Source of the DNA: a virus
Lineage: Duplodnaviria > Caudoviricetes
Length of the DNA: 45,162 nt
Reading direction: 5' to 3' (one strand)
IMG/VR virus record: IMGVR_UViG_3300020045_008887
Coordinates: 1-45,162 of that record
Shown piece after piece: positions 5,697 to 30,063 of the stretch. A model generated the notes under the pieces. The model was given only the letters and a program-made list of their open reading frames with translations. It did no database searches and was not told where the DNA came from. The position numbers and the translations under genes are program-made. Within the stretch, counting starts at the first letter, position 1. Every line of letters starts with the position of its first letter.

Positions 5697-5747
5697 TTAA
5701 TACCATGCTCCACCCCAAGGGAGGATAGAATCATTAATTTTTTTCAT
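5697..5747 (-). CDS. 16-aa peptide MKKINDSILPWGGAWY (candidate radical SAM substrate)
   Basis: Translated by hand. Its ATG overlaps the last 14 nt of the radical SAM gene and its stop precedes the terminator. Confidence 0.5.
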   Translation of the reverse strand: MKKINDSILPWGGAWY

Positions 5748-6951
5748 TTTGCAAAGAATTAATATTAATTATTCGTTCAGTCGGGTAAATACCCTTATCG
5801 AAGTACAAAGATACATTTTTATTTGAATCCAAGATAGGTTTGTTGTCATTATTTACAATTGTACGATACGCCTGATTACGTTGCATGGATTGCGGGTATT
5901 TATTATTATTCCAAAATTCCCTCATAACTCCTTTTAGTGTATAGATATTATGTGCTTCAACCGATTCGCTCCACGCCTTTATTGACGACTTAACTAAATA
6001 TTTATTAACTTCCTTAAATTCACGTTCGAAAAAAGGTTTATTATCAACGCTTACATTATAAAAGTCGTCAAATGTATAAACCCCTGTCCCTTTGATGTGC
6101 GAATAATTGATGATATCATACTGATTTGGGAATATACTGCTGAATGTTTTTTTGATCCCATCGTAAAAATTTGTCTTATAGGGCATCCCTAATTTAACAA
6201 CATTAATACCTTCATTGATTAATATTGGGATTATCTTCTTTACATAGTCTTGGAATGTTTTCCGCTTTACCCCGTATTCAATTTCTTCTTTGGTAAACGA
6301 ATTTAATCTTGATGAAGAAAACGAATCAACTTCTTTTTGGTTCAAATGCAAGGCTTCAGTGCATATATTATAAATGCCTATTCTTTTACATCTTTCAATA
6401 ACTTTATATACATCATCAATAGGCATCCATGATTCTAAAATTGGGTTTAAAGCGATAATTACATGATACCCTTTGTTTTTTAATTTTTCAGCGGTTAAAA
6501 ATCTTTCTTCTGTTGATGGGGCGCCTGGTTCAATCCTTTTTCTTATTTCTTCGTCCAATGTTGTTATTGTAATATAAAAAACAATATCCATCCTATTACT
6601 AAATGCTTCGATAAATTTATCAATACCTTCGCCGGTTTTTGTTTGAACGAACAATCCATTTTGAAGTCGGTTTAATTGCCTTGCGAGTTCGATGGAATGG
6701 ATATAATTACTTTTACTGAACGGGTCGGTTTTGTTGGATAAACAAATCGGATAACCTTCTTTTATTAGGTTATCTTGAAATGTTTTGATGCATCTTTTGT
6801 CGATTTGCCGGATAACTGATTTTAATTCCAAGTACCTAGCCTGTTTCCTTATGTTTGCAAAACAATAGCAACAATTGTGGGAACATGTATTTCCGCTTAA
6901 TTCGAGCGGTGCGGGGTGAAACATAAATTCACCGATAAAGTTTTCTATCAT
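5734..6951 (-). CDS. Radical SAM enzyme (SPL-like family)
   Basis: CxxxCxxC motif CSHNCCYC, plus TDPF, QTK and ITITTLDEEIRKRIEPGAPSTEER, typical of SPL-like radical SAM proteins. Confidence 0.88.
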   Translation of the reverse strand: MIENFIGEFMFHPAPLELSGNTCSHNCCYCFANIRKQARYLELKSVIRQIDKRCIKTFQDNLIKEGYPICLSNKTDPFSKSNYIHSIELARQLNRLQNGLFVQTKTGEGIDKFIEAFSNRMDIVFYITITTLDEEIRKRIEPGAPSTEERFLTAEKLKNKGYHVIIALNPILESWMPIDDVYKVIERCKRIGIYNICTEALHLNQKEVDSFSSSRLNSFTKEEIEYGVKRKTFQDYVKKIIPILINEGINVVKLGMPYKTNFYDGIKKTFSSIFPNQYDIINYSHIKGTGVYTFDDFYNVSVDNKPFFEREFKEVNKYLVKSSIKAWSESVEAHNIYTLKGVMREFWNNNKYPQSMQRNQAYRTIVNNDNKPILDSNKNVSLYFDKGIYPTERIININSLQNEKN

Positions 6952-9214: not shown

Positions 9215-10897
9215 TTAATTTTTAATTATAAGCCTTTGAATTGCGGTCAAAGTCTTTATTATCCTCAATTTTGATATTGAAACCAAGGCATCCAATCCGG
9301 CAAAATTATATTTTCCATAAGGCAAAACAGCCTGATCGGTAAAAGGAAAATCATATTTATTCAATAAACTTTTAATTGCACCACTTCCTGGAGCATAATA
9401 TGCCTCTTTTGTATACCCAGAAATAGTCAAATCATTATTTCCTGACACATTGATGTATTTATCGTTCACTGAATCATAATATACCGTGACCCCTTTTGTC
9501 AAATTAACCGGTTCATTATAATCACAGGTTTCGGCCCAAAATGTTGACTCGGTAATCCCAGTCATAGTACCATTATTTGCGTTGATATACCCATACCCTT
9601 TTACCCCATTCCGGTGGTTTAAAGGCCATCGGTCAACAATTGTCAACCCAGTTAGGCTTGTATACCTCAAATCGGTATATACGGCATTTTTTACGATCAA
9701 TAAATCCGTTATTTGCATTGCACCAAACACGGAAGCATTATTCCGGCTTGCCAAATGTAATTTTAAATTCGCTAAATTAGATGAAACTACTTCCTGGTAG
9801 GTAGTATCTTGAACCCCCACGCTTACAAAATCAACAAATAACGTCAATTGAGGGTTAGCTGTAGCATCCCTATTGATGACTAATTGAATGTAATGCCATT
9901 TTCCATCGCAAACATTTGTGTTATAATATACTTGGTTTGAACCGGTTGCACTTTTTACCCAAAAGTTTATTTTTGAACCAGTTGGGTTATTTGAGTTGAA
10001 TGCACATAATATGTCACCTGTCACCGAATAGTTAGTGCCGATTTCTAATCCTACAAAAGTGCTTGTTTGACTACTTTTAAACCAAAATCCGATAGTTAAT
10101 TTATTTGTATCAGCCAAGGTGATAGCGTTATCAGTTCTGAAGCAATCATCCGTGCCTTGAAAATTAGCAACAGTATTATTTGTGATAATTGCATTATAAA
10201 TGCCTTCTAATCCACTTAATGTTTGTAAAGCTAAATTTGCGAGTGGATAATAATCTTTCGGGTGCACCCCATCACTTGTATAAGTAGCCGGCACTTGCCA
10301 TTCGGGTATTGAATGCAGGTCAATATAACCGTGGGCAAATGTTTTATAATTATCTAAAATTAAAGCATTTACTGCTACATTATTCGTTTCAACGGCATGA
10401 TTGACTAAATTAGCAGTGCCCACTATAACGGTAGCCCCTTTACTTTTGCACCATAATCCAATATCCCTTATATTATTGTACACCTGGGTAACCGTTTTTC
10501 CAGCTCCTAGGTCGTTTAGATTTTCAAAATAAATTACATAATTTTTTTTTGTTTCCGAAAAAGAAGGAAGTACTTCAGCATCAAGCCCAGCCAATATAGC
10601 TGTACCTGTTTTGCTGTTTACCCCCAAATTAACGACCGTACACCCACTTCCTAAGTATGTTTGTAAAATTGTCGGATAAGATGGGGTTGTTGGACTGCCA
10701 AAAGTACCTAAAGTGATGGAATTTCCTACGCAAATGATATTTAGGTCGGTTGGTTCGATCAAACCAGCACCCTTAAACCCCCAATGTCCGTTCGAATATA
10801 CTGGGGCAGTCGAAAAAACATCCATAAGTTTTTTTAACCCATACGAACTTCCCCCTCCTAATTTGCCAAAATTGTTTAACCCTAAAAATCCAAACAT
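9215..10897 (-). CDS. SGNH/GDSL esterase fused to a ConA/laminin-G-like domain
   Basis: SGNH blocks VGNSIT, NLGVNS, NDL and DGVHP, then LamG-like LTIGFWFK, DGKWHYI and LTLFVD. Likely start is MFGFLG at 10897, after the promoter at 10914-10921. Confidence 0.8.
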   Translation of the reverse strand: MFGFLGLNNFGKLGGGSSYGLKKLMDVFSTAPVYSNGHWGFKGAGLIEPTDLNIICVGNSITLGTFGSPTTPSYPTILQTYLGSGCTVVNLGVNSKTGTAILAGLDAEVLPSFSETKKNYVIYFENLNDLGAGKTVTQVYNNIRDIGLWCKSKGATVIVGTANLVNHAVETNNVAVNALILDNYKTFAHGYIDLHSIPEWQVPATYTSDGVHPKDYYPLANLALQTLSGLEGIYNAIITNNTVANFQGTDDCFRTDNAITLADTNKLTIGFWFKSSQTSTFVGLEIGTNYSVTGDILCAFNSNNPTGSKINFWVKSATGSNQVYYNTNVCDGKWHYIQLVINRDATANPQLTLFVDFVSVGVQDTTYQEVVSSNLANLKLHLASRNNASVFGAMQITDLLIVKNAVYTDLRYTSLTGLTIVDRWPLNHRNGVKGYGYINANNGTMTGITESTFWAETCDYNEPVNLTKGVTVYYDSVNDKYINVSGNNDLTISGYTKEAYYAPGSGAIKSLLNKYDFPFTDQAVLPYGKYNFAGLDALVSISKLRIIKTLTAIQRLIIKN

Positions 10898-10950
10898 ATC
10901 CCTATATTTTAGGCAAATATAGCTTTTTTTAAATGATATACAAATAAAAA

Positions 10951-10971
10951 ACCCCTCTTTAATTGAGGGGT
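10951..10971 (-). terminator. Intrinsic terminator
   Basis: ACCCCTC...GAGGGGT stem followed by a T-tract on the minus strand. Confidence 0.65.
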
Positions 10972-10999
10972 CAGCCTTAGTATTTTTCAACTAAGGGAT

Positions 11000-11741: not shown

Positions 11742-11760
11742 TTTAGTTTTTGTTTGATTT

Positions 11761-11809
11761 CTTATGTAAATGTAGGTATAATATTTGAATTGGCAAATAT
11801 ATTAACCAA
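11761..11809 (-). promoter_or_regulatory. Repeated phage promoter with a 19-bp operator-like motif
   Basis: Minus strand TGGTTAATATATTTGCCAATTCAAA...TACATTTAC. Near-identical units at about 13436-13480 and 29382-29428. Confidence 0.65.
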
Positions 11810-11933
11810 TTATTTATATATTATTTATCTATAAGAATTGATTTTATATAGATTTTATCTATGAAAAAAGCCCCGGAAAACTGAGGGTTTTTTGGCCCGG
11901 GGCAGGAGTTGTAATTAACCAATTTTGAAGTAT

Positions 11934-12305: not shown

Positions 12306-12395
12306 ATAATTTTTATACGGTTAAAACGCTTAACTGTCGTTTTTATCTCTGATTATGAAATAGTTAATAAAAACGTGCGTTTATTTGATAGTTAG
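12306..12395 (+). repeat. 90-bp repeat copy 1; candidate attI-like site heading the cassette array
   Basis: 86/90 identical to 27895-27984. Identity stops right after GTTAG (GTT at 12391), the first cassette boundary. Confidence 0.65.
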
Positions 12396-12401
12396 TGGCA
12401 A

Positions 12402-12710
12402 TTAAAAGCCACGATTAATCTGCTGTTCCATAATTCGCATTATTTCCTTTGTTAACCGTTCTGGAAACATAGATGATGTCCACGCTGCTCCAAATGATTC
12501 AGGAGCGTATTCGTGTAAATTTGATGATATTGCATCCATTATACTGTCATGTAATGGCGAATATTCTGAATCTCTTTTTTCATTAGACTCTCTCAAACCT
12601 TTATATTTATTAAGCAACCAATCTGGGGAAATAGGTTTGAAATGATTAACTTCCACTAACACACGGTTAGCGCAATTGCCGTTTTCGTGGGTATTTGAAG
12701 TTTCTTCCAT
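12402..12710 (-). CDS. Cassette 1 hypothetical protein
   Basis: Stop lies 11 nt from the GTT at 12391; start codon is inside attC1. Confidence 0.7.
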   Translation of the reverse strand: MEETSNTHENGNCANRVLVEVNHFKPISPDWLLNKYKGLRESNEKRDSEYSPLHDSIMDAISSNLHEYAPESFGAAWTSSMFPERLTKEIMRIMEQQINRGF

Positions 12711-12785
12711 TTTATTAAAGTATTTATAGTTTGATAAATTTGTGCTTTTAAGTCGGCAACTTCGCCAACCGTCACCGTTAACTGC
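12653..12785 (+). repeat. attC-like site 1
   Basis: CCACTAAC (complement of GTTAGTGG at 12391); arms CGGTTAGCGCAATTGCCG / CGGCAACTTCGCCAACCG; next core GTTAACTGC at 12777. Confidence 0.8.
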
Positions 12786-12789
12786 AAGG

Positions 12790-12963
12790 CTAAAGACCCG
12801 CTTCGTTATCAGTTCGTTTCTTAATTGTTTTATTCATTGCTTTTAATAAATCATCAATAAAAGGCTGATGAATCTTTGGTATTTTATTTTTGCGAACTGT
12901 TTGGCGTGAGCCGGAAAGCATCCGGCTCAATTCGCCCCAGTTTAAAAGTTCTTTAGCATCCAT
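12790..12963 (-). CDS. Cassette 2, 57-aa possible HTH protein
   Basis: Translated by hand: MDAKELLNWGELSRMLSGSRQTVRKNKIPK...; stop 13 nt from the GTT at 12777. Confidence 0.6.
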   Translation of the reverse strand: MDAKELLNWGELSRMLSGSRQTVRKNKIPKIHQPFIDDLLKAMNKTIKKRTDNEAGL

Positions 12964-13124
12964 TATTTTTTTGCTAAAATTGTGCGTTCTAAACTGTAAA
13001 TGTCATCTTCGTGTTCTACTTCTACGGCTTCAATAGCTGTTTCAGTTTCGTTTAAAATTTCAATGGCTTCGTTTGCGTTTTTTGCTTTAATGTAGCCGTC
13101 TGAGGTTGTTACATAGTGTTTCAT
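12963..13124 (-). CDS. Cassette 2, 53-aa acidic protein
   Basis: Translated by hand: MKHYVTTSDGYIKAKNANEAIEIL...; TAATG stop/start overlap with the next gene. Confidence 0.6.
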   Translation of the reverse strand: MKHYVTTSDGYIKAKNANEAIEILNETETAIEAVEVEHEDDIYSLERTILAKK

Positions 13125-13126
13125 AA

Positions 13127-13408
13127 TTAGATGGATTTATAAATTGTTTGGAAATTTTCACTTTTATTTTCAATCCAAAATTTAGCACTTGTTTGGGCTG
13201 ATAATTTTGCAATAATCATATCATATTGTGCTTTTACTTTTTCGTTATCCATTTTACCAGTAACCATGTTGCAAAGTCCTGAGATAACTTCTACAAAAAT
13301 ACTGGAAGCAAATTCAATTTGTTTTTCCGAGCCTTCAAAAGTTGGTATTTCAAATGAAAAAACTTCTTCGTTTGATTTGCCTAAGTTTGTTTTTACTGTT
13401 GTTTTCAT
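13127..13408 (-). CDS. Cassette 2 hypothetical protein
   Basis: Likely start is MKTT at 13408, after the AAAAAAATACAACT leader; contains FEGSEKQIEFA...SAKFWIEN. Confidence 0.7.
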   Translation of the reverse strand: MKTTVKTNLGKSNEEVFSFEIPTFEGSEKQIEFASSIFVEVISGLCNMVTGKMDNEKVKAQYDMIIAKLSAQTSAKFWIENKSENFQTIYKSI

Positions 13409-13513
13409 AGTTGTATTTTTTTTAATTGTTTGATGATGTAAATGTACAACTATTTTTTGAATTGGCAATTATATTAACCATTTATTTTCATTCTTAATAA
13501 CAAATAAAGCCCA

Positions 13514-13613
13514 GCAGTTAACACGTTGTATACGTCGGTTTTGCTGGGTAATTCCGTGTAAATTGATAGTTGTGTGCAAGCAAAACCGAACGCATACAAC
13601 AACCGTTATAACC
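13514..13613 (+). repeat. attC-like site 2
   Basis: GCAGTTAAC (complement of GTTAACTGC); arms GTTGTATACGTCGGTTTTGCT / AGCAAAACCGAACGCATACAAC; next core GTTATAACC at 13605. Confidence 0.85.
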
Positions 13614-13617
13614 AACC

Positions 13618-14454
13618 TTAAAGACCGCACAGCCCATTGCATTCTTCTATTAATTCAGGGAATAAGCTCGGATACTGTGTAAAGTCAATTTCTCTAAGTG
13701 GTTTTAAGTGTTTAGATAAAAACGTTTGCCTTTTCAAATTTGGATAGTTGCGAATTGCATCATCAAAATTACAAGCCTTTTCAAACTCATTCGGGTATTG
13801 CTTTTTAAAAACTTTCCAATAATTATCAGAATGAAAAGGGCATATTAGGCAAGCACTTTTGCCGGGTTCCCTCATTTCATTTTCACGGAACCAGTTTATT
13901 ATTTGGTCAATCCGTATTCTATTTTCAATAAGCGGATAGTAGTTTTCAATATATTTCACGGTACTATCCTTTATTCGCTCTATTTCGTCAAGGCTTATGC
14001 CTATCCATAGTCGTATTTTATTACCATTTCGTATAGTTTGTAAGTGTTTTCTAAGCGGTGCAATTTTATAATCATTTGTGCATTGGCGCATAATTAAACC
14101 ACCATTACCCGAAAGCCTTAAAGGCAATGCAGCTACACGGCTTTTTTTGCCATCCAAATAATTTAAGGTATCATCAACTATGTTGCCTGCCGAAACAATC
14201 ACTATATCAAAGTTGTATTTGTTTTTAACGTAATCTTTTAGCCATGTTACATAAGAGTAAACATAGTCAGGTTCACAACCAGTGTCACTGAATATTGCTA
14301 AATCAGGCTTGAATTTATAAGCACCTTCCAAAGCTGTTAATAGCATATAGCTACTTTGTTTACCAGCACCCAAAGAAATGACATTAATAAAAGGCTGGTT
14401 ATAACACGTGCTATATGCCAGTTGGGTTTTATCGGTATTTGAATCGTTCTGCAT
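13618..14454 (-). CDS. Cassette 3, PAPS reductase-like / PP-loop (adenine nucleotide alpha-hydrolase) protein
   Basis: SLGAGKQSS, FSDTGCE, RQCTNDYKI and KSACLICPFHS motifs, C-terminal ECNGLC; start codon is inside attC3. Confidence 0.8.
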   Translation of the reverse strand: MQNDSNTDKTQLAYSTCYNQPFINVISLGAGKQSSYMLLTALEGAYKFKPDLAIFSDTGCEPDYVYSYVTWLKDYVKNKYNFDIVIVSAGNIVDDTLNYLDGKKSRVAALPLRLSGNGGLIMRQCTNDYKIAPLRKHLQTIRNGNKIRLWIGISLDEIERIKDSTVKYIENYYPLIENRIRIDQIINWFRENEMREPGKSACLICPFHSDNYWKVFKKQYPNEFEKACNFDDAIRNYPNLKRQTFLSKHLKPLREIDFTQYPSLFPELIEECNGLCGL

Positions 14455-14531
14455 CTAATTTAGTTTAAGTGTAATTTGATAGGGCGGTGCTCTGTAATCC
14501 CAACCGGACACATAGCACCACCGTTATACGC
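14396..14531 (+). repeat. attC-like site 3
   Basis: TGGTTATAAC (complement of GTTATAACCA); arms GTGCTATATGCCAGTTGGG / CCCAACCGGACACATAGCAC; next core GTTATACGC at 14523. Confidence 0.85.
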
Positions 14532-14533
14532 AA

Positions 14534-14854
14534 TTAAGATTCTGCCAACTTTGAGATAGTTGCGATATAAGTTTCATTACATCTCGTTCTTTGGTTTTGC
14601 CAGTCGATAAACTTTTCCATAAGGTTATTATTTCCTGTACTTGAAATCATTTCTACAAGTTCGGATTCAATTTTCGATAACCTTTCAACTTGCTTTTTAT
14701 GTATTTCAATTTTAGTTTGAATTAGCTTTTCGTTCATAATTTTATTTGTTACTTTTTTACGGTGTTTTTTGAAATATCCATCTTGTGTTACCCAATCAGG
14801 GTCTTCAACTAAAATGGTATTCCCATTTCCGTCTGTTTTCTCAATCATTCTCAT
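14534..14854 (-). CDS. Cassette 4 hypothetical protein
   Basis: Stop 11 nt from the GTT at 14523. Confidence 0.65.
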   Translation of the reverse strand: MRMIEKTDGNGNTILVEDPDWVTQDGYFKKHRKKVTNKIMNEKLIQTKIEIHKKQVERLSKIESELVEMISSTGNNNLMEKFIDWQNQRTRCNETYIATISKLAES

Positions 14855-14884
14855 ATAGTTCCGATTAAAAAATTAATAATAAAA

Positions 14885-14909
14885 GCGTATACCACCATCG
14901 TTGGGCGCA
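14885..14909 (+). repeat. Collapsed attC-like site 4
   Basis: GCGTATA (partial complement of GTTATACGC) followed only 8 nt later by the core GTTGGGCGCA at 14900. Confidence 0.65.
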
Positions 14910-14911
14910 AC

Positions 14912-15112
14912 TTAAGCAAACTGCGAACCTTGCACCCATTTAGCTTTACATTGCTGTTTTAATTTATCTTTGATTTTTTCTGAACGATTCCAGTATTGCG
15001 ATTTATTACCAAAATACCATCCTTCTTCTTCGTTTTGATTTATCAAAGTTAAAATGTGAGCAATCTCACAATCTGTTAATGTTATAGTTTCTAATTTTAT
15101 CCTTCTACCCAT
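14912..15112 (-). CDS. Cassette 5 hypothetical protein
   Basis: 66 aa; stop 12 nt from the GTT at 14900. Confidence 0.6.
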   Translation of the reverse strand: MGRRIKLETITLTDCEIAHILTLINQNEEEGWYFGNKSQYWNRSEKIKDKLKQQCKAKWVQGSQFA

Positions 15113-15363
15113 CTATGTAATGTAAATTCAAGCCATTCGGCAGTTAGTTCGTTTTGGCGATTTTTAATATAAACAAGTTCCCAACCTTCACGTATTAATT
15201 CATTGAGCATATCCATTCTATTCCCGTCACGTTCGGGTAATATGCTTATTCTTGTAGTCATTAAGCATCCAACACTTTTTTCTCGATTGTGGTATTGCTT
15301 ACAAAATAAACTGCGCCCAACAACAGGTATATTCAATTGCGGTTTTTGCTTGTTATTGTTCAT
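15097..15363 (-). CDS. Cassette 5 hypothetical protein
   Basis: 88 aa; start is inside attC5 and the N-terminus KPQLNIPVVGRS is encoded by the attC arm. Confidence 0.6.
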   Translation of the reverse strand: MNNNKQKPQLNIPVVGRSLFCKQYHNREKSVGCLMTTRISILPERDGNRMDMLNELIREGWELVYIKNRQNELTAEWLEFTLHRWVEG

Positions 15364-15449
15364 TTTTATCTCGTATTTAAGTTATTACTGTTTGAAAATT
15401 TGGCGCTTCGTAGTCCGCAACTGAAATATACCTGCGGACGTTGTGTGCA
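15312..15449 (+). repeat. attC-like site 5
   Basis: TGCGCCCAAC (complement of GTTGGGCGCA); arms CAGGTATATTCAATTGCGG / CCGCAACTGAAATATACCTG; next core GTTGTGTGCA at 15440. Confidence 0.85.
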
Positions 15450-15492
15450 ATAGCCTTTTTTCGTAGCAAAGTTACTGCTTAATAAACCTTTT

Positions 15493-15657
15493 TTATTTAA
15501 TTTTTTGCCCACGCTCTTTGGTTTTTGCAAAACCATTTTGGATTAAAATCTGAATGTATCCGGAAAGGTTTTCCTTCCCGAATACTTCAATACTATCTTT
15601 TTTAGCTTTATCCTGTTGTTCTTGGGTAAGGCTTACAGTCACCTTCTTAGTCTTCAT
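15493..15657 (-). CDS. Cassette 6, 54-aa ribbon-helix-helix-like protein
   Basis: Translated by hand: MKTKKVTVSLTQEQQDKAKKDSIEVFGKENLSGYIQILIQ..., a strand-helix-helix pattern like CopG/Arc. Confidence 0.55.
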   Translation of the reverse strand: MKTKKVTVSLTQEQQDKAKKDSIEVFGKENLSGYIQILIQNGFAKTKERGQKIK

Positions 15658-16027
15658 CGTTTGGTTTGTAGCTCAACAATTCGTCTGGAGTTCCTTCAAA
15701 ATCATCAACCTTTATAATCAACTTATTGTCAATAAAGCGAACCTCGTAGTTATACTCCTGCTCATTATCTTTAGTTGTTAAATAAAACCCTCCAATTTTG
15801 GTCTTTTTTTCAGCCACATACTGCGCTGCCAAACACCCCATACCATTAGCAAAACCATCCTTCATTGTTTGTTTACCAATCCCATTAATTATTGTTTTGC
15901 CTTTTAAAAAGTTAGCTAAATCATGCCCAACGCCATCAATATAGCCATCAAATTGTTGGTACACACTTAAAATTGGTTCTTCTTTTTCAAATTCATTATA
16001 GAATTTAACAGTACTTCTTGTTCCCAT
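15647..16027 (-). CDS. Cassette 6 phage hypothetical protein
   Basis: MGTRS...YQQFDGY..GVG..L...NGMGCLAAQ; own promoter TATATTTG at 16066-16073. Confidence 0.75.
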   Translation of the reverse strand: MGTRSTVKFYNEFEKEEPILSVYQQFDGYIDGVGHDLANFLKGKTIINGIGKQTMKDGFANGMGCLAAQYVAEKKTKIGGFYLTTKDNEQEYNYEVRFIDNKLIIKVDDFEGTPDELLSYKPNDED

Positions 16028-16181
16028 TGTTTTAAAATTTAAGTTATTAATAATATTTATCGGTACAAATATAGTAAATACTTTTTAATTACAAACTATT
16101 TACTTATAAAAATAAAAATCCTCCCTAAAAAATTAAATAAAAAAGTGTTCGTACTTCGATTTAACAAAACTGGAAACTACA

Positions 16182-16260
16182 TGCACACAACACAGTATAA
16201 GTAAAAAAAACGTCTTGGTGCGTAATTGAAAGTATGTAGTTCTAATTAAGTTCATATCAT
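16182..16260 (+). repeat. Truncated attC-like site 6 (left half only)
   Basis: TGCACACAAC (complement of GTTGTGTGCA) followed by ACAGTATAAG and the internal AATTGAAAG motif; no matching right arm found. Confidence 0.6.
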
Positions 16261-16350: not shown

Positions 16351-16851
16351 TCAATTATTTTTAATTATACTATTTATTTTTTTTTGATCTGTCAATTTTC
16401 TTGATCTGTCAGGCATATTCCTGAATATTTCTAACCAATCAAGTTCTAATGTCTCTGTGTTTTTTATGTAAAATTTAATAGTAAAATGTTCACTATTTAT
16501 TTTTATTAGAGTGCTATTGTTAAATAGCTTTTCAACAGGTAATTTGTTTATTTCATTTATAAATTGACCCATTTCTTTTTCGAGCAGGTAATAATCGCAT
16601 TCGTTCAAAAATCCAGGTGTTTTAATTTTTAAGAATTTTCCTAAATTATACCCTGAATAAACACGAATGCCAAATTTTGAAAATATTGATCTTACTTCAC
16701 CACCCCAATCACTTATACCAAATGCGGTATCTTTTGTTACTGAAGTTTCTCCTTCTTCTATCAATTCTACAATTGAATTGTAGGCTGATGCTGAAATATC
16801 CAGTCGGTTTTCTTCGATATGATTTATGAGTTGAAATAATTTTGATTCCAT
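16351..16851 (-). CDS. Hypothetical protein
   Basis: 166 aa ORF. Confidence 0.6.
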   Translation of the reverse strand: MESKLFQLINHIEENRLDISASAYNSIVELIEEGETSVTKDTAFGISDWGGEVRSIFSKFGIRVYSGYNLGKFLKIKTPGFLNECDYYLLEKEMGQFINEINKLPVEKLFNNSTLIKINSEHFTIKFYIKNTETLELDWLEIFRNMPDRSRKLTDQKKINSIIKNN

Positions 16852-16889: not shown

Positions 16890-16991
16890 TGCCAATTGAT
16901 GGAATTGAACCACCGACCTTTATGTAATGATTTATACAATGTTATTATTGTAAACCTATACATTAATGCTCTGCCGCTGAGCTAAATTGGC
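16890..16991 (-). ncRNA. tRNA-like RNA with an elongated anticodon arm
   Basis: Acceptor stem GCCAATT/AATTGGC, D arm TAGCTCAGCGGCAGAGC, T arm GGTGG-TTCAATT-CCATC. About 47 nt of AT-rich hairpin replace the 17-nt anticodon arm. Confidence 0.75.
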
Positions 16992-22044: not shown

Positions 22045-22287
22045 TCAACAATTAGCTATTTTTATTGAATCAATGACATCAATGGCATCCTGGATGGTTT
22101 CAATATTTTCAATTTCTTCATCAGGGATATGGATATTAAATAATACTTCGCAATCAATAAGTAAATCAACTGCATCGAGTGAGTCAGCACCTAAATCATG
22201 GGTAAATCTAGCTTCTGGTGTAATTTCGGATTCGTCAATATTTAATTTGACAATAATCATCTTTTTTAATTCTTCTAATGTATCCAT
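22045..22287 (-). CDS. acpP: Acyl carrier protein
   Basis: 80 aa, acidic, with the phosphopantetheine site DLGADSLD and F.I.IPDEE.E.I.TIQDAID. Confidence 0.9.
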   Translation of the reverse strand: MDTLEELKKMIIVKLNIDESEITPEARFTHDLGADSLDAVDLLIDCEVLFNIHIPDEEIENIETIQDAIDVIDSIKIANC

Positions 22288-27713: not shown

Positions 27714-27896
27714 TTATTTAACCCTCCGTTTGAATATAAACAGGTAACTCGAATGTTCATTAGGATTTGTAAGCATTTTGCTTATTTCCAAATGAACCAA
27801 TTCCCATCCCGCTTTACCTTTTTCATTAAGGTAAACATCAAACTTATTAACTGTCAATTTATTAGCAGTCTCAACTGTCGTTTTGTATTCCCACAT
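27714..27896 (-). CDS. DUF4177-like small protein
   Basis: WEYKT...LNEKGKAGWELV...FIFKR. Confidence 0.7.
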   Translation of the reverse strand: MWEYKTTVETANKLTVNKFDVYLNEKGKAGWELVHLEISKMLTNPNEHSSYLFIFKRRVK

Positions 27897-27984
27897 AATT
27901 TTTATACGTTTAAAACGCTTAACTGTCGTTTTTATCGCTGATTATGAAATAGTTAATAAAAACGTGCGCTTATTTGGTAGTTAG
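27895..27984 (+). repeat. 90-bp repeat copy 2 (attI-like, no array follows)
   Basis: 86/90 identical to 12306-12395, ending at GTTAG (GTT at 27980). Confidence 0.7.
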
Positions 27985-29168: not shown

Positions 29169-29354
29169 TTACATGTAATTTTCATAAAAAGTATCAATTT
29201 CTACTTTTTCTATTTTTGTAACCCCCCAAGTGTTTAAAATGGTTACATACTTGCGACCAATAGTTTTGATGTAGATTCCAGCGCTTACTTGATTTTCAGG
29301 TATTGCACTGTACTTTTCTTTAATCTCTGTTGATTTTTCTTTTAAAGTTTTCAT
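29169..29354 (-). CDS. Hypothetical protein
   Basis: Likely start is MKTL at 29354; the upstream in-frame extension is the repeated promoter/leader. Confidence 0.6.
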   Translation of the reverse strand: MKTLKEKSTEIKEKYSAIPENQVSAGIYIKTIGRKYVTILNTWGVTKIEKVEIDTFYENYM

Positions 29355-29648
29355 AGTTGTATTTTTTTTAATTGTTTGATGAAGTAAAGATAATACTTTA
29401 TTTTGAATTGGCAATTATATTAACCAAATATTTTATGTGTTATAAAACATATTATTTGGTGGGCAAATTGCATATATGCAAATAAATATACATATGTGAA
29501 AATAAAATACCGCCCCGGGTGCGCATCTTTGAGAGGCGTGGGCGGTAACTTTAGTTAATACTATGCACCTTCCTGCGGATAACCTTAATTTAACCTTGTT
29601 ATTTCAGGTTAACCCCGTCGGTATTTCTGGCGCTTCAACGGTATTTTG

Positions 29649-29722
29649 AGCCATCGGCAGGAATTGAACCCGCGACCCGCTGATTACAGATCAGCCGCTC
29701 TGGCCTACTGAGCTACAATGGC
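29649..29722 (-). tRNA. tRNA-Thr(TGT)
   Basis: GCCATTG/CGATGGC acceptor stem, GCTGA-TCTGTAA-TCAGC anticodon arm, GGTTCAATTCC T loop; CCA is not encoded. Confidence 0.85.
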
Positions 29723-29904: not shown

Positions 29905-30063
29905 ATTGATATATTTTTAGCAAATGTAATAAAAAAACCGGAAACTTTTGGCAAAATTTCCGGCTGCCTGGTCAAATGATTTTCCGACATCATTCGTTAA
30001 CGTGGTAAATATAATCAAATATAGATATTTATTTGATAAGTACAAATATATGAGCATAAAAAA

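Follow-up and report, generated by a model that had tools for sequence, protein, structure and literature searches.

A six-cassette integron-like array in a tailed-phage genome and its predicted Xer-like recombinase

How does a phage genome that encodes no integrase come to carry a row of gene cassettes with integron-like ends, and which enzyme would move them? The question is raised by IMG/VR virus record IMGVR_UViG_3300020045_008887, a 45,162-nucleotide (nt) virus contig with terminase, portal, and structural genes that was analyzed as an entire record and is called the window here. At positions 12306..16260, inside this tailed-phage genome, lies an array of six cassettes with integron-like ends. 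Quite probably, Bacteroidota and their phages share an integron-like system of which this array is a part, and the predicted enzyme of that system is Xer-like, without the insertion of the integron integrase IntI and likely acting in trans. The array works like a cluster in which attC sites stand without an integron integrase (CALIN), yet it is not an IntI integron, failing on the enzyme, on site geometry, and on gene direction.

We searched the window with a structural scanner that takes an AAC and a GTT 55–200 nt apart and aligns the 22 bases past the AAC to the reverse complement of the bases before the GTT. It returned exactly four attC-like sites in the 45,162 nt, all within the array and all in the same orientation, with AAC/GTT at 12658/12777, 13520/13605, 14403/14523, and 15319/15440 on the plus strand, while the same scan of 20 block shuffles of the window returned none. 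To belong to the CALIN class, an element needs two or more attC sites and no neighboring integrase, and the four sites here come from our own scanner rather than from the attC model that defines the class. A first-pass annotation, made from the sequence alone, had counted the same four intact hairpins, and all 12 of its core motifs were found in place by a motif check; the spans from AAC to GTT measure 119, 85, 120, and 121 nt, a range of 85–121 nt in place of the 100–140 nt that it gave. The features are as follows.

12306..12395, plus strand: attI-like site, a putative docking site, with the predicted crossover G/TT at 12391/12392
12392..12777, plus strand: cassette 1, body to 12660 and then hairpin site 1; ends match at 6 of 7 bases
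12402..12710, minus strand: 102-amino-acid (aa) open reading frame (ORF) of cassette 1, no known family in Pfam or PHROG; its ATG is within hairpin 1 and it is read across the arm and the AAC box
12658..12779, plus strand: hairpin site 1, attC-like, 119 nt from AAC to GTT
12778..13605, plus strand: cassette 2, three small ORFs (minus strand) preceded by a promoter-like leader; hairpin site 2 follows
12790-12963 (phrog_34662), 12963-13124, and 13127-13408, minus strand: ORFs of cassette 2, from the ORF list and PHROG
13400..13487, minus strand: repeat module lying upstream, a likely phage promoter with its leader; further copies outside the array
13520..13607, plus strand: hairpin site 2, 85 nt; folding z score −3.5 on the minus strand
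13606..14523, plus strand: cassette 3 with hairpin site 3, a unit also found elsewhere with different neighbors
13618..14454, minus strand: PAPS-reductase-like protein of 278 aa (phrog_424, E 4.7e-39), first 17 codons within hairpin 3
14403..14525, plus strand: hairpin site 3, 120 nt
14524..14900, plus strand: cassette 4, ORF 14534-14854 (minus strand); collapsed site at 14885-14902, right arm only
14901..15440, plus strand: cassette 5 with hairpin site 5 (15319-15442); ORFs 14912-15112 and 15097-15363 (minus strand)
15441..16215, plus strand: cassette 6, ORFs 15493-15657 and 15647-16027 (minus strand); end TGCACACAAC plus left arm, no intact right arm
27714-27896, minus strand: DUF4177 gene, starting at the left edge of the second attI-like copy, where relatives have the recombinase
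27895..27984, plus strand: second attI-like copy, identical at 86 of 90 positions; likeness stops 2 nt past the GTT

The seven bases after the GTT of cassettes 1, 2, 3, 5, and 6 match the cassette's own far end at 6, 6, 7, 7, and 7 positions, and the other intact far ends at only 2–5 of 7. A random GTT/AAC pair in the window reaches at least 6 of 7 with a probability of 0.0032 and 7 of 7 with 0.00023; by our arithmetic, the product chance of the matches in cassettes 1–3, where both ends are fixed independently of the match, is about 2e-9. In a wider set of 118 site pairs, 66 had an own-end match of 6 or 7 bases out of 7, and 10 matched the adjacent core. The earlier reading that every core pairs with its own far end is borne out for these five cassettes and breaks down at the fourth pair, a collapsed site that has no AAC and whose motif, GCGTATA, occurs four times in the window. 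Likewise, five of the six paired segments have matched ends, and the sixth end is followed by a left arm only. At site 4 the AAC and left arm are gone and the right arm alone is left, which likely reflects a deletion between two GCGTATA copies; at site 6 the left arm is present without an intact right arm. We rejected a possible right arm of site 6 farther away, near 16360-16375, because it scored 24, below threshold, and lies inside another ORF. Scanning with position matrices of the left and right arms brought up no other clear site in the window, and the hairpin sites had no Rfam match.

Whole-site folding energy is a poor test of such sites because their loops are AT-rich. The 85-nt site alone beats its shuffles (z −2.6 on the plus strand and −3.5 on the minus strand), the other three intact sites giving z −0.4 to −1.7, so the signal resides in the arms rather than in total energy. 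Of 195 sites, 183 fold better on the bottom strand. On the R' side, the top strand has 2–4 extra bases in all 195 viral sites and all four window sites, a count that is partly built in, as the scanner presumes an R'-side offset. Classical attC sites carry extrahelical bases on the R''-L'' arm, so that the window system differs from them in placing its extra bases on the R' side.

No tyrosine recombinase, nor a relic of one, was found among the 65 ORFs of the window, and a six-frame hmmsearch of the window with a profile of 77 related recombinases gave a best domain E of 1.7, in agreement with the initial statement that no integrase is present. A candidate enzyme came from other genomes: the hairpin 5 pattern led to 23 viral loci, many with arrays showing the own-end match, and three of them had a tyrosine recombinase at the array's left (two complete, 266 aa). 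In a viral survey, for which 80 of 151 contigs were fetched by recombinase protein and near-duplicate loci were kept, 170 sites lay upstream of the enzyme in the window's orientation, 9 in the opposite orientation, and 0 downstream (386 kilobases (kb) upstream and 528 kb downstream). At least two sites were found at 37 of the 52 loci with 2 kb upstream, versus 0 of 73 downstream. Since relatives carry the enzyme 50–70 nt to the left of attI, an ancestor of this phage probably had its own.

Judged by sequence, the linked enzyme is not IntI. That of viral locus L014 scored 164 bits against a cut-off of 265 on TIGR02249 (IntI), 159 against 335 on XerC, and 162 against 330 on XerD; its best model was the XerA-type NF040815 (196.7 bits, cut-off 220), and enzymes of this type fall below every Xer cut-off. 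The Bacteroidota and phage enzymes listed for TIGR02249 reach at most 181 bits, and true IntIs 384–455. The best structure matches include PDB 4A8E (E 5.9e-39) and 5HXY, and in comparison with the solved IntI 2A3V the linked enzyme has 36 residues where IntI has 84, being without about 45 residues at the site of the IntI insertion. The spacing from the lysine turn to HxxRH, taken wherever the motif search succeeded and with the mis-parsed 95 and 227 left aside, is 53–62 residues against 100–102 in IntI, and in a tree 18 true IntIs form their own clade (support 99), with 56 phage, prophage, and host enzymes on the other side. These results do not support the first-pass attribution of recombination to IntI. 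XerA, XerC, and XerD (NF040815; PDB 4A8E, 5HXY) are the best sequence matches and have the same short catalytic domain, but the linked enzyme differs in scoring below the Xer cut-offs, in its Phage_int_SAM_4 N-terminal domain, and in adjoining cassette arrays; the substrates of Xer enzymes are double-stranded dif sites.

These sites are very unlikely to be of the ordinary attC kind with a classical host IntI as their recombinase. The R''/R' boxes, the G/TT crossover, and the bottom-strand folding bias are as in attC (PMC8946536), and IntI1 recombined P12002L_attC2, a site of Polaribacter phage P12002L (PMC9892861). By our reading of the supplement and the genome, though, attC2 of P12002L is a head site and not a hairpin, and P12002L_attC1, the one tested hairpin of the window's family, was the sole failure of six with IntI1 (PMC9892861). 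The sites are also tied to a non-IntI enzyme, and a complete-genome survey names a single complete integron in Bacteroidetes, that of Salinibacter ruber M1 (10.1101/2022.02.28.482270). In the P12002L record (L326), we noted the relevant stretches at ~29170-29250 and 30010-30060, where the published attC2 looks like a head site and attC1 is a short hairpin of the window's family.

Relatives of the recombinase were detected in 64 of 201 genomes of the phylum, and 45 host regions were fetched (40 of 75 matches chosen by score and flank, plus 5). Nine of them, read in detail, hold forward-gene arrays with matched ends in two layouts: longer enzymes of 310–401 aa with the array downstream (L291, L295, L299, L306, L313), and enzymes of ~280–306 aa with the array upstream and divergent (L297, L300, L307, L308). 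Prophage-like copies with reversed genes occur in Flavobacterium urumqiense and several assembled genomes, and because phages and prophages encode the enzyme too, its source need not be the host chromosome. The idea of a host-supplied integrase thus survives in part, as Bacteroidota hosts often encode the enzyme beside the same sites; the enzyme is not IntI, and the host is not its only carrier.

The left end of the array offers a candidate point of entry. No hairpin was found before the head site at 12306..12395 by structural scan or folding, and its GTT at 12391 ranks first among the 1786 GTTs of the window on a matrix built from 34 recombinase-adjacent head sites. Of 60 viral recombinase loci with a site, 39 have a hairpin-less GTT 32–102 nt from the enzyme start with a shared AT-rich motif before it, and 35 of those 39 head GTTs match the first far end at 9–10 of 10 bases, the GTT having been chosen for that match. 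By this resemblance, the window's head site may serve in docking. The core after the second attI-like copy differs, and neither a matching far end nor a hairpin comes after it. A head-site pattern search returned one unrelated viral contig and no metagenome contig.

Movement of such units can be read from the Polaribacter phage Freya, ten isolates of which carry an enzyme relative. We compared the genome records of Freya_1, 2, 5, 6, 8, and 9 with Freya_10, isolates 3, 4, and 7 being left out. Freya_1, 2, 5, and 9 equal Freya_10 minus 4942, 4100, 3198, and 307 nt from the head site, the joint sharing GTT only; Freya_8 is missing an internal 902 nt with GTTG common at the joint; and Freya_6 has a 469-nt insert at attI that is absent from Freya_10. 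The flanking 3000 nt are identical across the compared isolates, and in each loss the hairpin departs with the body to its left. A comparison of related phages at the GTT, which the first-pass annotation had proposed, is thereby answered for the Freya siblings, which differ exactly at G/TT, and not for the window phage, for which no backbone relative with a different array was found.

The window's own cassettes also occur in other settings. Cassette 3 is present in four metagenome contigs (L337–L340) at 86–94% identity, with the likeness beginning within 4 nt of G/TT and the left neighbors differing where readable. Record 2 of run X5, a 4765-nt contig, matches 13605-14527 with foreign sequence on both sides, and hairpin 3 itself accompanies the cassette 3 copies of runs X2 and X5. 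Record 20 of run X3 covers cassette 5 and its hairpin end to end (14899-15442), whereas record 27 of X4 departs at 15446 and record 4 of X5 enters at 14899 from other sequence. The seven public runs share just 5–6% of words with the window, and this phage is not in them; they show cassette units in other genomes, not variants of this phage. These comparisons show that the mobile unit is the segment from G/TT through the gene body and hairpin to the next G/TT, with new units placed at the head site. Assignment of a hairpin to the cassette on its right was ruled out by the Freya joints, by run X5, and by two shared cassettes, whose right hairpins are 0.79–0.90 identical and left hairpins 0.38–0.46. 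In runs X1 and X7 we also observed the ends of cassette 6 (15440-15509 and 16109-16194) brought together with its middle missing, as if a common shell were filled with phage genes; gene-less micro-cassettes of ~20–30 nt with matching ends occur in L022 near 4263, L419 near 15186, and L185 near 2358.

An array of the same origin, built by a recombinase of the phage's ancestor, may have become frozen, that gene being lost and host enzymes no longer acting on the array, which would differ from the system proposed here only in present activity. We think this rather unlikely. The collapse of site 4, the half-lost site 6, the second attI copy without a partner end, the relatives' enzyme adjoining attI where this phage has none, and the lack of any variant of this array among those found would all fit a frozen state. 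Both attI copies, however, are kept at 86 of 90 positions up to the crossover with different cores after it, and head sites with cassettes but no adjacent recombinase ORF also occur in L185, L419, and phage P12002L. Cassettes 3 and 5 are 92–95% identical in DNA to copies elsewhere, so their arrival was probably fairly recent. Present recombination of the array is putative, and it is the unit boundaries, insertion point, orientation, and link to an enzyme family that the comparisons show.

Every ORF of the array is on the minus strand and points towards attI, backwards relative to the sites, in a genome whose ATG ORFs of at least 100 aa number 47 on the minus strand and 0 on the plus strand. 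Integron cassettes mostly hold promoterless genes read away from attI by Pc. In contrast, 107 of 109 oriented viral cassettes point towards attI: the matched viral cassettes comprise 107 reverse, 2 forward, and 5 without an ORF, and those of host chromosomes 23 forward, 2 reverse, and 2 without an ORF. The reversed genes would thus be placed on the sole strand that this phage transcribes. The module at 13400..13487 in cassette 2, which we take to be a promoter from its position and from a Bacteroidota promoter motif, recurs beyond the array: the copy at 29347-29426 is 91% identical over 80 nt, and that at 11747-11815 is 80% identical over 69 nt. This suggests that cassettes are built from phage DNA, and with the reversed genes and the 91% identity to a non-array locus of the same genome, the cargo looks phage-born and not drawn from host arrays. 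The proposed gain and shuffling of accessory genes is upheld as far as mobile cassettes joined at G/TT are concerned, and amended as to where the genes come from. Scans of the window for sigma-70 promoters and terminators gave chance level only.

The hairpins also appear to contribute to the genes. An ORF starts inside the hairpin in 44 of the 107 reversed viral cassettes (frames 32/10/2), and in the window the ORFs of cassettes 1, 3, and 5 do so, that of cassette 5 being 15097-15363; the loop would supply the start codon and the first 15–18 residues. Most homologues of the cassette 3 protein, which has no match in Pfam or the PDB, begin at the first conserved motif and are some 256 aa long, and the junction peptide is present in 16 of 120, with 13 leaders by script, or 12 merging one truncated record. 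Hairpin 1 alone was found between other sequences in run X7 (record 16), and in three contigs cassette 3 is followed after its AAC by other sequence, with identities to site 3 of 0.45, 0.58, and 0.64 (unrelated median 0.53). By these comparisons, hairpins travel with their own cassette and are apparently also exchanged between bodies. Reversed cassettes in L001, L007, L010, L013, and L017 have, by eye, N-terminal text resembling DNA methyltransferases.

Such starts within hairpins, the better folding of the transcribed strand, and exchange at the AAC end as well would also suit RNA leader or terminator elements of early genes, the genes being swapped by homologous recombination between hairpins. 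We regard this as extremely unlikely: the window hairpins are just 39–58% identical to one another and the Freya joints share 3–4 nt, and it leaves unexplained the complementary ends, the hairpin-less head site at a fixed distance, and the host arrays with genes on the other strand.

Under the integron-like system that we favor, the minus (bottom) strand of each site would fold, the enzyme would join two R' boxes and release a circle with complementary ends, and the circle would re-enter at attI. The gene for the enzyme would lie on the host chromosome, in a prophage, or in a co-infecting phage. Hairpin swaps between bodies would take place at the AAC box, with recombination on the opposite strand as the likely and preferred route, and would change the N-terminus of the gene; in classical integrons top-strand recombination is about a thousandfold rarer than bottom-strand recombination (PMC8946536).

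Several observations weigh against this account. Two of the six sites are decayed, the head-site score of 6.4 is low within the training range (5.4–22.0), and none of the seven runs covers the head site. The link between enzyme and sites is drawn only from gene neighborhood, and among host regions just 3 of the 43 having 2 kb upstream show at least two sites there at our threshold, while 26 sites lie downstream, counted in the fetched 4 kb only. Support for the Bacteroidota enzyme group is weak (78) in a quick tree whose outgroup was a single Xer family, and the Freya enzyme shares just 40% identity with the reference enzyme. What looks like hairpin exchange could instead reflect cassettes forming repeatedly, or similar loops recombining homologously. 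The best terminase match (78%) is labelled a Rhodobacteraceae phage, the matches of the cassette 6 proteins are phages of Proteobacteria, and searches with cassette 6, the right flank, the terminase, the head site, and blastn found no close backbone relative with a different array.

On the phage itself, 74 of 75 records matched by the portal are Bacteroidota phages, which makes Bacteroidota the likely host. The cassette 6 and right-flank protein searches returned no close relative, blastn of the array against isolated phages gave a single 42-nt match, and terminase relatives had no cassette in common with the window. The cassette 6 proteins gave a weak match to phrog_1987 and fall in virus-dominated clusters. 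Just right of the array, at 16890-16991 on the minus strand, is a weak tRNA-like Rfam match that ARAGORN did not call. The phage also encodes tRNA-Thr(TGT) at 29648-29722 (minus strand), an acyl carrier protein at 22045-22287, a radical SAM protein at 5734-6951, and a GDSL-domain protein at 9215-10990.

Among known systems, integrons (PMC8946536, PMC8618304) share with the window system an attI head, R''/R' palindromes, the G/TT crossover, a hairpin moving with the upstream body, a better-folding bottom strand, and a recombinase divergent from the array. They differ in that the linked enzyme is without the IntI insertion, the window has no enzyme gene, and the genes of the window system point to attI and may start inside the site. 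Bacteroidota are listed without detail among phyla with integrons (PMC8618304). Seventeen CALINs have been reported in phages, including P12002L (PMC9892861), which resembles the window in its attC-like cluster without an integrase, its site family (by our scan and the primer sequences), and its reversed genes. That paper treats the P12002L sites as divergent-direction IntI substrates; its accessible text names no separate recombinase, head site, or in-hairpin starts, and the word "Bacteroid" is absent from it. The Freya genomes were described as 44.0–48.9 kb, with the integrase read as a sign of temperate life, and "integron" and "cassette" are absent from the main text of that paper as accessible (PMC8776804). 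Phage CALINs are thus already published (PMC9892861), whereas we found no published account of the insertion-less recombinase system in a literature search that was mostly at abstract level and covered few subscription papers.

If true, these observations would mean that cassettes with hairpin sites can be shuffled without the insertion that defines integron integrases, and that a phylum in which surveys turned up few integrons shares a common system with its phages. They would also partly explain why small early genes turn over so fast in these phages and why protein N-termini there are oddly variable. Because Freya isolates and a cultured host exist, with variants already in public genome records, the mechanism can be tested directly. 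We suggest, more tentatively, that Bacteroidota phages may run a cassette economy of their own on a second integron system, tuned independently, with an insertion-less enzyme recombining folded hairpins at both boxes, cassettes that phages make from early genes of their own, the hairpin as an exchangeable translation start, and two or more docking sites in enzyme-less phages for loading cassettes by means of a borrowed enzyme.

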